DNA of 64,000 bases from Scophthalmus maximus (Eukaryota). The stretch spans positions 23,983,101-24,047,100 of the forward strand of contig NC_061519.1 of NCBI RefSeq assembly GCF_022379125.1. The letters are read 5' to 3'. Shown here in pieces: positions 5,451-17,962 of the stretch; the stretch's first letter is position 1; each line of letters opens with the position of its first letter. Under the pieces are notes generated by a model that was given only the letters and a program-made list of their open reading frames with translations, was not told where the DNA came from and did no database searches. A program made the position numbers and the translations under genes.

Positions 5451-5531
5451 CTACTGAAGCCTAAGAAGTGACTCCAGCGATGAGAGCGGCTCAGACAGAC
5501 ACAGCTGCTGTTCGCTGGGTTCGAAGACATT
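5451..5531 (-). CDS. Putative terminal coding exon of the exon-array gene (..NVFEPSEQQLCLSEPLSSLESLLRLQ*)
   Basis: Acceptor ..ttctgcaag|. It is in phase 0 with the upstream exons. Stop codon (rc TAG) at 5451-5453. AATAAA on the minus strand sits ~190 nt downstream (plus-strand tttatt at ~5258). Confidence 0.4.
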   Translation of the reverse strand, partial: NVFEPSEQQLCLSEPLSSLESLLRLQ

Positions 5532-8500
5532 CTTGCAGAATTAAAAACAAACAGGGGACAAGTTGGGACAAGTCACATGTTGGAGAGTTACCTTGACCCG
5601 TGGCATGAAGGGGTTGTGTCGCTGTGGTTTCTTGACTTTGGTCTAAAGAAAAATGAAATTAAAAAGGCAGGATTAAAGTTCTACTGCAGTGAAGGTCAAA
5701 CTCTGAATGTGAAAATCAAACGTAGAAACTGTGCAGCAACAGGCCGAAAATTAACAGGAAGGAATTCGGTTGACCTCCTCGTCTTGCTTGTCCTCTTTGG
5801 ATGAAGATTCATCTTCTCCTCTTAGCTCTTCGTCATCAGACGCAGCCTGACAACACAAACCCATGACCAGATATCCCATTGGTGACGGTGAAATAAGTGA
5901 TCAACGAGAAACAAGTAACACAAGTTTGCGTGCGAATTTTCAACGTTTGAGAAGCTTTTGTCAGAAGAGGGGAGGAGATTATAAATTAAACATAAGACCA
6001 AGACGTTCCTGTACCTTGGCTGCAGCACGTGACATGAACGGGTTATGGTGCTTGTGTTTTTTCACCTTTGTCTGTGTGGGGGAGAAAAAGGAACAGCGAC
6101 AGGAGTGTTAAGAGGACGAGAAGCCATAACTGGCAGAACTACATTTTTCGGCGACTTGTACTCGAAGGATCAATCATTACAGACTCGAACTGTGACCCAA
6201 CTGCCCCTGTGTTTACTGGGTAAGCAAAGATGTCGGGTCCATTTATGAGTTAACTCGTATTTCAAACATGATTTGGCCTCAATTAACAGTCCGTCGGTGC
6301 CACATGTCACCTGCAACACTCCTGGGAAGCAGCAACTATAAGAAGGGTAAGACCCCAGCAGAACATCTATCAAGCTTTATATAACAGTCACTGTGTCCAC
6401 AAACCAATAAGCAAACAGATGAAACACTCTGTTTGTAAGAAAAGAAAACCTACTCAAGTTCAACTTCTAACTCCGCAGAATCGTTGGAGAGGTGAACTTA
6501 CCGCCTTGCTCTCCGGGGGGTTCGGCTCGTCCCCCTCGTTGGCCTCAGCAGATCGGTCTCGTCCGAGACCTTCGTCGTCCGAGTGGCTCTGCAGCAAGAA
6601 GTCAACAACTTATTCAATAACCCATTCATTCTAATCAAAGCCTTGAAAGTGTGTTCTACATGTATGCACTGGAACGCACTGTTGTTTGTGCGCACTTAAG
6701 TGACTAATAGTGGCTAATATTTCATCCAGAAATTCAAGGTTTTTTTTGTAAATGTGGTCAGGGAATAACCTCCAACAGTCAATAACTGAAATTCAAAATG
6801 GATGAAACACTCCAGTGTATCATCAGAACCAACCGGACCCTCGTACTGTGTGCACACGTCAGTACCTGATGGTCGGTCCTCTGCTTTATCAGAGCGTGTC
6901 TTGTTGATCGGTTCATCTCCTGTAATTAAAAACACAGAAAACTGGTTCCTAAAAACACAAGCGCGTTGCACACGTCAGCTCCGAACTGATCCAAACGGCA
7001 CACGTTCACTCCTCTACCTCTACTGATGGTCTGACAGGAACGACGGGAGTCTCTGCGCCGCGTTTGTCTTTCACTTTGTCATCCGCGGACGTCCTCTTCA
7101 TCTCCTGCAACGCAAAAGGACAGAGAGAGACGGACGGAGGAGAAGTCAGAGCAGCCTCACACGAGCCACATGTCGCCGGGCAGTAAGTGTGTTCGTTCAG
7201 GCAAACCTCTCCAGTCGGTCGGGGAGGAGCCGCCGGCGTTTCACTTTTTCCCTTCGTTTCCCGCTGAATCATGTTGCTTTTGACCTGACAAGGACACACA
7301 CACACACACACACACACACACACACACACACACACACACACACACACACACACACACACACACACACACACACACACACACACACACACACACACACACA
7401 CACACACACACACACACACACACACACACACACACACACACACACACACACACACACACACACACACACACACACACACACACACACACGAGAATGAGTA
7501 GATGGGGATTTTGACAGAAGTTGACCAGCTGTCTGTGTGAGTGTGTGTGTGTGTGTGTGTGTGTGTGTGTGTGTGTGTGTGTGTGTGTGTGTGTGTGTGT
7601 GGTCACCGATGACTCGTGAGTGACACAATAACTAGACTGACCAGTTTCGACTTCTCCTCCACTTGCTTCTCGTTCTCCTTGAGCAGTTCTGCGTCTTCAG
7701 TGTCTTTCTGCACAAAGGACATTAAATATTAGACACTAAACTTTATCAACAACAACCTGATTACTCCAGTTGTGTTTAAAGGAACGCGTCAGTCCTTGTG
7801 CACATGTTGGCTCCTCAACATCAAAGGCTTTTAAGATTTTCAGAGGTCTTTTACCAACAAAACCATTAAAGGCATTGATTTTTTTTCACACACTTCCATA
7901 TGGTACAACATTCAAATGGTAGACCCTTGAAACCTACTTGTGTTATTCATCAAAAACAATATGTCTGCATTGAGTTTTTGTCAAAGCCACAGCTAAGTTA
8001 TTTTCATATTTTACCGAAATGAGTGGAACCCAATGGAGAACAATAACCAACAAAATCCAAATAACAACATTCACAAAATGGTTGGATGTGATTAAAAAGT
8101 CTATGTGAACAGGTTACAACTTGCAAAACTACAATTTTTGACACGTGTGTTCAGAATATCATGCTAAAATATGCTATGCTAAAATGCTAAAGCACCACTA
8201 GCACCATCACCAAACCCACTGAACAGCATAATTACTTTATTTGCACCACGGAACAGATTCAGTTTGGACATGGCTCCGATCACGGGGGTCTGACAGGAAG
8301 AGAACATCATTATTGAAAGATTGAAGCGCCTCAACACTTTAGATTAACAACAGCTCTCCAAGCCAAGAGCCAGAACTATATTAGCTTCTCTCAGCACAAA
8401 TAACAGAATAGGTTCAAATGTAATTCATAAACAGTGCCTGGGGCCTACATTTGGATCCCCTCCACTGGAAAGTGATTTCCAAGCGGCAGAAATCTTGCTG

Positions 8501-17500: not shown

Positions 17501-17962
17501 CCATGTACAGTACAGTGGGGGGCACCAGGGGGCCCAAAACTATGTTTTCCCCCATGGCCCCCTGGAGAGTTAATCCGGCCATGGGAGTCAAACTGAAGCC
17601 GAAAGTCACTCTGTCCTCTGTCATTGTTTATTATGGTCCATGATAAACGCTGTGTGTTTACAGTCATATCGTGATATTTCCAGCCACACGTGTAGAGGTC
17701 AGTTATAATACGACTTTAGAAAAGAATAAAGAGAAGACTCACTGCGACGCCTCCTCCTCCTTCACACTCCAGATCCAGGTCATCGTACCGATCCTGTCGA
17801 ACCGCAACAGACGTGTGACTCGCGGATATTTAAAAACAGAAATGAACTCATTGTGAATCGACGTGTTCAAAAAAAAATCTCACTGCAGTTTGTGTCGAGG
17901 ACAAACTGCAGTGAGATTTTTCTTCTTTTTTTTTTACAGTGTAAGTTCCGTTCACTGACCAT
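5451..17962 (-). CDS. Unidentified multi-exon gene encoding a low-complexity, probably disordered protein of many phase-0 mini-exons: alternating basic GMFKK-type and acidic SELSGSSD-type modules, NPF motifs, Asp/Glu/Ser-rich C-terminal exons
   Basis: Around 30 short minus-strand exons, each 57-96 nt and a multiple of 3. Each is bounded by ..cag| acceptors and |gtgag or gtaag donors (read as ctcacctt / ctcacctg on the plus strand). Hand-translated examples: QKVALFGGMFKRSFKSAEPEAQAQ, DNLSVNSELSKSSDSLTDNNIK, DKGAGFKGMFNKKTTKSAKESPLQ, ESGGMFSGMFKKDKKRTQSQ, EDLSAPSELSGSNDDNVSLTGSTK, EKGGLLSGVFRKKGAKSQSQ, NKLAGAKTKRNPFRSAYK, TQTKVKKHKHHNPFMSRAAAK. The terminal exon is NVFEPSEQQLCLSEPLSSLESLLRLQ-stop. 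I could not place the protein family from memory. Confidence 0.55.
7294..7489. repeat. (CA)n microsatellite, ~98 units, intronic
   Basis: Perfect CA dinucleotide run read directly. ORFs translating as CVCV/THTH across it are artefacts. Confidence 0.95.
7535..7601. repeat. (TG)n microsatellite, in inverted orientation to the neighbouring (CA)n and ~45 bp away
   Basis: Direct reading. Confidence 0.95.
9855..9895. repeat. (GT)n microsatellite
   Basis: Direct reading. Confidence 0.9.
12821..12880 (-). CDS. Exon-array gene, A-type mini-exon (ESGGMFSGMFKKDKKRTQSQ), duplicate copy
   Basis: Identical to the exon at 13262-13321, including its flanking intron sequence. Confidence 0.6.
13092..13163 (-). 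CDS. Exon-array gene, B-type mini-exon (EDLSAPSELSGSNDDNVSLTGSTK), 72 nt
   Basis: Same splice-site architecture as 13400-13468 and near-identical sequence. Confidence 0.6.
13262..13321 (-). CDS. Exon-array gene, A-type mini-exon (ESGGMFSGMFKKDKKRTQSQ), 60 nt, phase 0-0
   Basis: Acceptor tttttgtccag and donor gtgag on the minus strand; translated by hand. Confidence 0.6.
13400..13468 (-). CDS. Exon-array gene, B-type mini-exon (EDLSAPSELSDSNDNVSLSGNTK), 69 nt, phase 0-0
   Basis: Acceptor ctttcattcag and donor gtgag on the minus strand. Confidence 0.6.
15590..15800. mobile_element. Degenerate copy of the GCTGCAAC-TIR MITE family, intronic
   Basis: Internal blocks are shared with the copy at 58557-58904 (..gaaaatggtgaaa.., ..atattcagtttactatcacag..aaagaaa..cag..cacatttaagat..). 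The TIRs are eroded. Confidence 0.35.
16075..16146 (-). CDS. Exon-array gene, first A-type exon (QKVALFGGMFKRSFKSAEPEAQAQ), probable exon 2
   Basis: Acceptor ttttag|CAAAAAGTGGCG and donor gtgac on the minus strand; 72 nt in phase 0. Confidence 0.5.

Follow-up and report, generated by a model that had tools for sequence, protein, structure and literature searches.

We showed that the array of small exons at positions 5451 to 17962 of a 64,000-nucleotide stretch of turbot (Scophthalmus maximus) DNA is the 5' part, about two-thirds, of one annotated minus-strand gene running from 17962 to 2464. The stretch (contig NC_061519.1, positions 23,983,101 to 24,047,100) is called the window below, and all coordinates are window positions. 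By its sequence relatives the gene is the teleost 'apol1' orthologue, here termed paralogue A, most orthologues being named 'apolipoprotein L1'. Taken as a whole, the data are with high probability explained by an annotated turbot apolipoprotein L (ApoL) gene that has a long exon-modular N-terminal region and an ApoL domain at the C-terminus. Thirty-six mini-exons encode this N-terminal region (the tail) of ~760 amino acids (aa) and low hydrophobicity, each exon being one charged module, and the region is presumably disordered. It begins with alternating basic (A) and acidic (B) modules and continues with basic NPF modules (C) and acidic modules (D).

Identification of the gene

The exon array was confirmed as real and on the minus strand by a scan for phase-0 open segments between AG and GT and by exon-by-exon location. 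A search of 5.8 billion proteins with the concatenated exon translation returned XP_035489698.2 ('dentin sialophosphoprotein isoform X3', 1110 aa, Scophthalmus maximus) at E=0 together with ~250 teleost proteins, the majority named 'apolipoprotein L1', with PF05461 present in all full-length ones. In a residue-to-codon map XP_035489698.2 and the window agreed at 100% identity all the way between the ATG (17962-17960) and the stop (2466-2464). As the initial annotation had it, one protein-coding gene is built here from duplicated symmetric mini-exons. The same annotation had called the gene unrecognised, without any known family and ending near 5451, and on these points it was mistaken. RefSeq holds 10 isoforms (XP_035489696.2 to XP_035489705.2; the longest, X1, has 1128 aa and 40 coding exons) under uninformative names ('dentin sialophosphoprotein', 'eIF5B'), and UniProt/Ensembl holds a turbot entry 'Apolipoprotein L, 1' of 438 aa only. 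The interval had been closed before the C-terminal ApoL domain, and the putative terminal exon at 5531-5454 is used in none of the 10 RefSeq isoforms nor in the GenBank model, the gene running on to 2464.

The turbot protein has the full layout of the teleost apol1 orthogroup, namely an MDRYxxLDLEC N-terminus followed by A/B units, K/R-NPF exons and a C-terminal ApoL domain of the TEKEEAKAFA type, and orthologues in halibut, flounder and others are 52-65% identical over 96-97% of the query. Units A4-A9/B4-B8 recur, but for one amino acid, in KAF0046653.1, a protein from another turbot assembly made independently; therefore the array is not an assembly artefact. Pfam gave no family for the repeat part alone, just an uninformative sub-threshold match to a Plasmodium repeat. 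The homologue search had been thought able to recast the region as a pseudogene or transposable-element array; it yielded the ~250 teleost matches but no such recasting. A pseudogene or transposon origin was ruled out by the open frames, the intact splice sites, the conserved orthologues and the existing mRNA contigs.

Exon modules of the N-terminal region

The 36 consecutive coding exons from 17793 down to 3981 are all symmetric and phase-0, each of 33-87 nucleotides (nt), and the naive chance of such a run is (1/3)^36. The exon properties described earlier held well. Between 17793 and 5592 all exons are phase 0-0, have lengths divisible by 3 and carry an AG acceptor and a GT donor; the acceptor reads cag in 30 of the 33 listed exons and the donor gtgag in 13 of the 18 A/B exons; and the run of symmetric repeat-module exons, as in titin PEVK, comprises 36 exons in a row. 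Tandem Repeats Finder did not report the exon array because its period is irregular.

There are nine strict A/B pairs (18 exons, 16146-11049) rather than the 11 or more counted initially, and a module hidden Markov model (HMM) gave exactly 9 A and 9 B modules. The alternation of basic and acidic modules is as strict as had been stated, with a net charge of +2 to +4 per A exon and -1 to -4 per B exon. An example is the basic, Phe/Met-containing A exon ESGGMFSGMFKKDKKRTQSQ followed by the acidic Ser/Asn-rich B exon EDLSAPSELSGSNDDNVSLTGSTK. The unit consensus is EKGGMFSGMFKKSxKPxxxxxxSQ (A) and then DxLSxxSELSASNDSLSxNNxK (B), the unit being 46 aa long in 237 of 516 distinct units; S36 is fully conserved, and G4, G8, Q24, L33, S34, D38 and L40 are almost so. 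Among 777 A modules 99.6% were net positive (mean +3.6, with 1.9 aromatics each), while 98.6% of 707 B modules were net negative (mean -3.2), and aromatic residues are confined to the basic blocks. A cluster of basic with interspersed aromatic residues, as in MARCKS, is thus present in the A modules. The description of these modules as MARCKS-like stands for composition, which resembles the effector domain, but the profile search revealed no homology to MARCKS or MARCKSL1 among the 20 matches with a source looked up. In the same way the B exons are indeed acidic Ser modules, but strict S/T-x-x-D/E sites of the CK2 type number just 0-2 in each.

After the A/B pairs, basic NPF exons (C1-C5) alternate with acidic Ser/Asp/Glu exons (D1-D4), and these modules are distinct from A and B. 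The C1-C5 motifs are, in order, KILKNPFTSS, TKRNPFRSAYK, KLNLFRGANK, KHHNPFMSRAAAK and RHNPFMPRVK. Four NPF motifs are present as had been noticed (KNPFTSS, KRNPFRSAYK, HHNPFMSRAAAK and RHNPFMPRVK), though 'TTPFMPRVK' was a misreading of the last. In 111 full-length orthologous proteins 442 NPF tripeptides were counted, ~4 each, with conserved basic flanks of the pattern KK-x-K-[KR]-H-NPF-M-[PS]-R-x-K. Over the whole tail the net charge per exon alternates between +2 to +6 and -1 to -9, and the sum is near neutral (120 K+R against 118 D+E; S 15%, K 12%, G 9%; aromatic content 3.6%). From this composition the product is a low-complexity polyampholyte and presumably disordered, in line with the first description.

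Exon and intron identity within the array

Identities were counted column-wise in one MAFFT alignment of units 4-8. Exons and introns within 11590-13625 had been described as nearly identical, which is correct for the exons (A4/A5/A6 95-98%, B5/B6 100%) but not for the A-to-B introns (66-77%). A5 and A6 are alike at 59/60 nt and B5 and B6 at 72/72 nt, synonymous sites included, while the A-to-B introns of units 5 and 6 are 73% identical. In the B-to-A introns, which are 78-322 nt long, the 27 nt upstream and the 20 nt downstream of each aligned A-to-B segment are mostly ~22-60% identical, and the aligned flanks of units A5-B5 and A6-B6 (12648-13321) are 40-44% identical. As judged by eye, identity is centred on the exons and the adjoining 20-45 nt (~20 nt past the donor and ~35-45 nt before the acceptor). 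Such exon-centred identity suggests short-tract gene conversion confined to exons, or else strong selection acting on the exons and their splice flanks, and it does not fit a very recent segmental duplication. Since the near-identical exons sit in diverged introns, the recent duplications proposed at first do not follow directly.

A small structure was noticed at the 5' splice sites of the same introns. At the start of the A-to-B introns of units 4-8, in their initial 20 nt (e.g. 13563-13544 and 13261-13242), GUGAGA can pair with UCUCAC 8 nt downstream to form a 6-bp hairpin, which is intact in four of the five introns and has a C-U mismatch at the sixth pair in the other. RNAalifold on the five introns gave this hairpin as the sole structure, with no covariation and no evidence of function; as covariation is absent, the hairpin may simply reflect shared ancestry.

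The ApoL domain and topology

The last three exons encode the ApoL domain with its hydrophobic helical hairpin. PF05461 matched aa 799-1053 over profile positions 43-297 of 298 (E=5.7e-36; 124.9 bits, where the cut-off is 25.9), and the tarpon and eel relatives likewise passed the cut-off. In isoform X1 the hairpin lies at aa 868-911 (STSAVGGVATIAGLALAPVTMGVSLIVTAVGLGVATAGGLTSAG) with a Kyte-Doolittle maximum of 2.06 (19-aa window) and a second hydrophobic stretch, a helix, at aa 1014-1038; the maximum of the tail is 0.53, and hydrophobic stretches are confined to the ApoL domain. No N-terminal signal peptide was evident by eye, so the tail should face the cytosol. A PDB sequence search with the C-terminal 374 aa found no solved relative. 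The hairpin region (window ~3150-2870, aa 83-196 of the 374-aa query) aligns weakly, at E ~0.09, with the hairpins of the bacterial toxins Hbl L1 (6tao) and MakE (6w08), 'IFGVVLAPFTLGGSLIL' against 'IAGLALAPVTMGVSLIV'; this alignment was not relied on.

Transcripts and isoforms

In-frame exon skipping had been considered possible and is predicted by the RefSeq isoforms. Relative to X1, isoforms X2-X10 differ by in-frame loss of A/B units within A4-B7, by skipping of C3 or by use of an internal donor in C4 (X2). Among RNA contigs from Logan, one of 4159 nt (L001, from an orthologue close to that of the filefish Nelusetta) has a single uninterrupted open reading frame (ORF) of 992 aa from the repeats through the ApoL domain. 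Six further RNA contigs of the same cluster encode forms of 853-1007 aa, and those compared differ mainly by a 48-nt retained intron.

In the intron at 7294-7601, between exons 7707-7639 and 7281-7207, gene-strand (CA)36 and (GT)98 runs occupy most of the length and stop a few bases short of the exon 7281-7207 acceptor. This exon, beside the (GT)98 run, is absent from one of the two turbot annotations. Long GT/CA runs near acceptors can modulate splicing.

Distribution and paralogues

The 111 full-length orthologues have a median of 7 A and 6 B modules (ranges 3-10 and 2-11), and the number of A/B pairs per gene across teleosts is 0-11, turbot being at the high end. The gene had been taken for a lineage-specific, expanding one. 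Copy number does vary by lineage, but the A/B unit is not turbot-specific, being found in eel, tarpon, sardine, smelt, trout, sole and others and in two paralogues. When copy number was compared by eye among flatfish, the outer units A1-A3 and A9 were one-to-one orthologues and the middle of the array had changed independently, with three KKDKKRTQSQ and two SPKPFGAR copies in turbot against one and four in halibut; Paralichthys has seven A/B pairs in all. Paralogue A is reduced in catfishes, characins, knifefish and mudminnow (0-5 A, 0 B, 1-2 NPF), and a tarpon protein (P0299) represents it in Elopomorpha with the full layout (4 A, 4 B, 3 NPF).

Searching 1.84 billion representative proteins with a profile of the A/B unit gave 101 matches, and the source was looked up for 20 of them. 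These 20 were teleost ApoL, nematode or beetle repeat, or metagenome proteins. Among the matches with a source looked up, every ApoL-bearing one was from a teleost, none was a non-teleost ApoL protein with the A/B unit and none was mammalian. The longer unnamed matches read like fish paralogues. A BCAS1-like nature of the A module, suggested by the similar FFK motifs of BCAS1, is putative, no mammalian protein being among the matches looked up.

The second gene, paralogue B, is 'apold1a' or si:rp71-1g18.13 (Solea KAG7527085.1, Sardina XP_062386586.1, Anguilla P0120), and the members examined have ~990-1700 aa. Like paralogue A, it has the 46-aa A/B unit, one module per phase-0 exon and an ApoL domain; in the eel and sole genes each A and B module is its own phase-0 exon of 48-75 nt. 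The two ApoL domains are 37-45% identical. Whereas paralogue A has NPF exons and the ApoL domain at its C-terminal end, paralogue B has a proline-rich basic N-terminus (in the five members read whole, from eel, tarpon and sole and two A/B-poor proteins), no NPF in most members counted (1 in tarpon P0111), and the ApoL domain in mid-protein followed by a C-terminal extension, which in the sole protein is a long K/E/R-rich tail.

The two paralogues of tarpon have consecutive locus tags (MATL_G00251830 and MATL_G00251840). In moray two adjacent repeat-bearing genes (GJAV_G00090710/090720) both have B-type ApoL domains, and a chimera-looking model in burbot, Lota lota (CAL8278845.1, P0164), leads from A-type exons into a B-type ApoL domain. 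The three loci suggest that repeat-bearing ApoL genes are tandem neighbours. Because the layout of one module per exon occurs in two paralogues, from eels and tarpon to flatfish, the repeat architecture is presumably ancestral to teleosts with an origin near their base, and it appears to have expanded in some lineages and eroded in others.

Proposed mechanism and alternatives

From composition and analogy we infer, tentatively, how the protein may work. Acting from the cytosol, the ApoL domain would insert into or perturb an intracellular membrane, as has been reported of the intracellular human APOLs (PMC8557400), and the tail would be a cytosolic, multivalent, charge-alternating tether of tunable length that positions or regulates this membrane domain. 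The A modules may bind acidic phospholipid surfaces via Lys/Arg and inserted Phe/Met in the fashion of the MARCKS effector domain, the interleaved acidic B and D modules would counter-charge them, and, since D modules carry most CK2-type sites, phosphorylation could weaken membrane binding as an electrostatic switch. The NPF exons would recruit endocytic or recycling proteins that have EH domains, and the endocytic-adaptor role put forward in the initial annotation is putative. Since all modules are symmetric exons, tandem duplication, loss or skipping would alter valency with the frame kept. It is also conceivable, though doubtful, that the A/B unit acts on ApoL membrane domains as an autonomous regulatory module peculiar to teleosts, its copies tuned by exon duplication and loss and kept alike by exon-centred gene conversion.

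A similar pairing occurs in a giant ankyrin-2-like protein of a rove beetle (P0231, aa 2512-3794), where KSGIFSGIFGKKDK is followed by ESEDEKTDDEE in 13 matches at a spacing of ~85-130 aa. Its recurrence in an unrelated protein suggests that the basic-aromatic and acidic pairing is a functional unit in its own right. Other A-like motifs were seen in Bursaphelenchus (P0180 and P0194, GKIVGMFKRTP) and in a metagenome TPR protein (P0221, KGGFFSRIFKRGEDE). The A-like motifs of the beetle, nematode and metagenome proteins are probably convergent short motifs.

Several observations weigh against the tether mechanism. An A module, at +2 to +4, is much less basic than the MARCKS effector domain, whose net charge is about +13, and strict CK2 consensus sites are sparse in the B modules, more of them being present in the D exons. 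Acidic residues following NPF are preferred by EH domains of the EHD type; here positions +1 to +3 are M/R, P/S and R/A and the flanks are basic, which argues against EHD-type partners. The A/B profile search, with the sources of 20 matches, gave no MARCKS or non-fish named membrane-binding homologue at E<=1e-3, and no binding, localisation or phosphorylation results for the protein or its orthologues were found in the literature searched. The turbot isoforms are computational predictions, and their differences may be read mis-mapping or copy-number polymorphism because the skipped units are near-identical. An AlphaFold2 model of the C-terminal 374 aa (20-sequence alignment) had a mean predicted local distance difference test score of 41.6 and a predicted TM-score of 0.39, too poor to use.

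Two alternatives concern the gene itself. A stand-alone, unrecognised, lineage-specific gene ending near 5451 and encoding a disordered protein alone, of no family, would agree with the empty Pfam result for the repeat part, with the uninformative RefSeq names and with a few short database entries (481-555 aa) that are without the ApoL domain. Yet all 10 RefSeq isoforms and the GenBank model run into the ApoL exon and none uses 5531-5454, the orthologous mRNA contig has a single ORF over repeats and ApoL domain, the short entries end in read-through or intron-like sequence, and the same architecture is found in more than 100 teleost orthologues and a second paralogue; the exact protein-to-genome map refutes such a gene, and its probability is negligible. 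It is very improbable, too, that the long models wrongly fuse a repeat gene with a short ApoL gene like the ~2.6-kb zebrafish apol1 locus, even though the zebrafish apol1 described in print has a 2.6-kb locus and an ApoL-only product (PMC4492502), the Ensembl/UniProt turbot entry has just 438 aa and the Lota lota model looks chimeric. The RNA-assembled contigs of an orthologous species have one continuous ORF, the 438-aa entry is a fragment since it begins mid-exon without Met, and more than 100 species and both paralogues have kept the architecture. An internal promoter might give rise to a short isoform.

The other alternatives concern what the tail does. If it were chiefly an entropic spacer or elastic element like titin PEVK, exon number would just set the reach of the ApoL domain and no specific ligands would be needed; the 36 symmetric exons, the predicted isoforms differing by whole A/B units, the 0-11 pairs across teleosts and the net charge near zero all suit this idea. 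The conservation of G4, G8, L33, S34, S36, D38 and L40, of the 46-aa unit and of NPF, in both paralogues and from elopomorphs to flatfish, whose lines parted close to the teleost base, would be unexpected for a spacer, and no sequence similarity to PEVK was found, so that we regard it as rather unlikely. The strict exon-level alternation of +2 to +6 with -1 to -9, the balance of 120 K+R and 118 D+E, the charge sign kept in more than 98% of ~1500 A/B modules and the confinement of aromatics to basic blocks would also fit a blocky polyampholyte whose self-association into condensates by complex coacervation clusters ApoL domains on the membrane. Against this, the blocks are short (~20 aa), the aromatic content is low (3.6%) and the conserved uncharged B residues (L-S-x-S-x-D-x-L) would go unexplained, and condensation appears unlikely. 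Binding of the A/B repeats to microtubules or actin, linking ApoL-bearing membranes to filaments, is brought to mind by the closest non-fish repeats, the 13 matched repeats of KSGIFSGIFGKKDK with an acidic cluster in the giant tail of the insect ankyrin-2-like protein, and by the basic repeats and acidic spacers typical of microtubule-associated protein tails. The beetle similarity, however, covers ~20 low-complexity residues and is probably convergent, and Pfam found no microtubule-associated or actin-binding family; we think a cytoskeletal role improbable.

Exon coordinates and other features of the window

The features of the gene are listed in Table 1.

Table 1. Exons of the turbot ApoL gene and one rejected exon. 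All exon coordinates are window positions on the minus strand, from the residue-to-codon map of the RefSeq protein and the splice flanks; "map" denotes this residue-to-codon map and "alignment" that of units 4-8.
Feature	Encoded sequence and remarks	Position	Strand	Basis or note
Start codon	3' end of exon 1 (ATG/gtcagt)	17960..17962	-	5' untranslated region extends upstream
Exon 2	DRYDDLDLECEGGGGVA; acidic N-terminal signature of paralogue A, phase 0-0	17743..17793	-	
A1	QKVALFGGMFKRSFKSAEPEAQAQ; basic-aromatic	16075..16146	-	map + module HMM
B1	DNLSVNSELSKSSDSLTDNNIK; acidic Ser/Asn	15167..15232	-	map + module HMM
A2	DKGAGFKGMFNKKTTKSAKESPLQ	14984..15055	-	map + module HMM
B2	ATLSLKDPELSASNDSLTDNKSSK	14834..14905	-	map + module HMM
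A3	DKPGVFGGLLKLSHKPGHARRPSQ	14661..14732	-	map + module HMM
B3	DLLDKELSVSNDSLSDNSNTK	14475..14537	-	map + module HMM
A4	ESGGMFSGMFKKDKKRTQSR; first among three near-identical copies	13564..13623	-	map + alignment
B4	EDLSAPSELSDSNDNVSLSGNTK	13400..13468	-	map + alignment
A5	ESGGMFSGMFKKDKKRTQSQ	13262..13321	-	map + alignment
B5	EDLSAPSELSGSNDDNVSLTGSTK; 72/72 nt same as B6	13092..13163	-	map + alignment
A6	ESGGMFSGMFKKDKKRTQSQ; 59/60 nt same as A5	12821..12880	-	map + alignment
B6	EDLSAPSELSGSNDDNVSLTGSTK	12648..12719	-	map + alignment
A7	ESGGMFSGIFKKSPKPFGARAQSQ	12254..12325	-	map + alignment
B7	EDLSAPSELSGSSDNVSAAGNTK	12100..12168	-	map + alignment
A8	ESGGMFSGMFKKSPKPFGARTQSQ	11926..11997	-	map + alignment
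B8	DDLSAPGELSASNDNLSENNTK	11772..11837	-	map + alignment
A9	EKGGLLSGVFRKKGAKSQSQ	11601..11660	-	map + module HMM
B9	DNLSVEGDLSASTDSLTEKPSK; left out of KAF0046653.1	11049..11114	-	map + module HMM
C1	GGGGPAKILKNPFTSSSQ; basic NPF module, left out of KAF0046653.1	10897..10950	-	
Exon	NKEKTEPSGGWNEKTSSTEKNKVKQ	10721..10795	-	
Exon	NGLSAMMQSKQ	10558..10590	-	
D1	EKNLDSDGEEASDSGEGGPSHKQ; acidic Ser/Asp/Glu module	10347..10415	-	
C2	NKLAGAKTKRNPFRSAYK; basic NPF module	10166..10219	-	
D2	TGSDDEDPPASSDKSSGSKQ	10006..10065	-	
C3	TPVIGAMSKLNLFRGANK; cassette exon, NLF in turbot vs NPF in other species, skipped in isoform X3	8236..8289	-	
Exon	KDTEDAELLKENEKQVEEKSKLV; KAF0046653.1 uses alternative donor 3 nt upstream	7639..7707	-	
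Exon	KSNMIQRETKGKSETPAAPPRPTGE; directly downstream of intronic (GT)98 run, left out of KAF0046653.1	7207..7281	-	
Exon	EMKRTSADDKVKDKRGAETPVVPVRPSVE	7018..7104	-	
Exon	EMNRSTRHALIKQRTDHQ	6866..6919	-	
D3	SHSDDEGLGRDRSAEANEGDEPNPPESKA	6502..6588	-	
C4	TKVKKHKHHNPFMSRAAAK; internal donor after TK in isoform X2	6015..6071	-	
D4	AASDDEELRGEDESSSKEDKQDEE; net charge -9	5775..5846	-	
C5	TKVKKPQRHNPFMPRVK; last true exon within the initially annotated interval	5592..5642	-	
Rejected putative terminal exon	NVFEPSEQQ...LQ*; weak 'aag' acceptor, in no annotated model	5454..5531	-	
Exon	AKVVQRPAQDDAAE; beyond the initially annotated interval	4797..4838	-	
Exon	NEGGTRTLFDQLEDFRIDPAQPERNQ; last of 36 symmetric phase-0 exons	3981..4058	-	
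Exon	EVEDLMEWWNTVE+C; 40 nt, first break of phase-0 pattern, conserved W-rich segment before ApoL domain	3819..3858	-	
Exon	(Q)WEDTPQDEDMTEKEEA(K); 51 nt, phase 1 to 2	3501..3551	-	
Last coding exon	ApoL domain (PF05461), then acidic tail, stop TGA at 2466-2464	2464..3418	-	

Neighbouring genes on the minus strand are marked by WD40-repeat exons at 25045-27627 (Pfam E=1e-6) and a PARP catalytic-domain exon at 61570-61932 (E=5e-8). No second ApoL domain was found within this window, no MYH9-like sequence, as synteny with the MYH9/APOL cluster would require, was noticed among the window ORFs examined, and Rfam and tRNA scans of the whole window found nothing. Three long open segments at 45875-46444 (plus strand), 55840-57495 (plus strand) and 41250-42287 (minus strand) had 0 Pfam matches; one of them begins MGTRASR, a possible N-myristoylation start, one is very acidic, and one, PPPY-rich with hydrophobic stretches after it, looks by eye like a protein of the TMBIM/Lifeguard type. 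The segments 44389-44872 and 45076-45499 repeat one AT-rich minisatellite block, with 8 copies of a 54-bp period in each and a poly(A) stretch in front of each, and represent a local duplication of ~630 bp. A perfect 11-bp x 3.2 tandem repeat (CCTGGGCGTGT) lies at 18239-18273, ~280 bp upstream of the ATG in the presumed 5' untranslated region or promoter.

Discussion

The gene is already in the databases but poorly named, and its architecture is undescribed in the literature searched, where no papers on the repeat tail, the A/B unit, the long repeat forms, 'apold1a' or si:rp71-1g18.13 were found. Recognising the long teleost ApoL protein corrects misleading automatic names such as dentin sialophosphoprotein, eIF5B, titin homolog, piccolo, WASH subunit and others. 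Zebrafish apol1 is used as a stand-in for APOL1, with a short ApoL-only protein assumed. Most teleost orthologues carry an N-terminal tail of 200-760 aa with conserved motifs, and a second paralogue shares the repeats; the tail thus bears on the transfer of fish models to human disease. If the A/B unit is indeed a regulatory module, fish 'apol1' would be architecturally unlike human APOL1, and fish knock-down nephropathy models would target a different kind of protein. The gene is also a naturally occurring model in which to study how a membrane-inserting domain is controlled by a disordered multivalent tail, and a clean case of exon-level modularity, with 36 symmetric exons, a charge block equal to an exon, lineage-specific gain and loss, and signs of homogenisation restricted to exons. 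The system is not of a new kind, and its function as proposed here is what we infer.

The ApoL family has been studied mainly via human APOL1, in trypanosome lysis and kidney disease, and we know of no described human or mouse member with an N-terminal disordered region of ~760 aa made of repeat exons. The C-terminal 320 aa of the turbot protein match the profile of the human apolipoprotein L family (APOL1-6, APOLD1; PF05461) and share the hydrophobic helical hairpin. In having no N-terminal signal peptide evident by eye, the turbot protein is like what is reported of the intracellular human ApoL members (PMC8557400). APOL1 has been dated to primates and the ApoL family derived from an APOLD1-like ancestor (PMC8557400); orthology to human APOL1 specifically is putative and comes from the database name. 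Zebrafish apol1 (NP_001025309.1, the APOL1 nephropathy model) belongs to the same named orthogroup, and the percomorph genes are named after it. It has been described as a short ApoL protein from a 2.6-kb locus (PMC4492502, PMC4854397) and is set beside the turbot gene by that description, and the other otophysan apol1 orthologues seen have 550-1000 aa with 0-5 A modules, 0 B and 1-2 NPF.

The known ligands of EH domains carry NPF tripeptides, and ~4 conserved ones occur per protein in the disordered region here; the turbot flanks are strongly basic and binding is putative. With the effector domain of MARCKS the A modules share composition and local pattern, SGMFKKDKK in a turbot A module standing beside the MARCKS effector segment SGFSFKKNKK; both are non-helical and rich in Gly, and their Phe residues have Lys neighbours. 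A single A module is much less basic, however, so that valency would come from nine copies, and membrane binding is putative. Although it has no sequence relationship to the turbot tail, whose modules alternate in charge and carry conserved motifs and whose differential splicing is predicted, the titin PEVK exon array likewise strings together many short symmetric exons, one for every module of a disordered region, so that exon number can be changed in frame.

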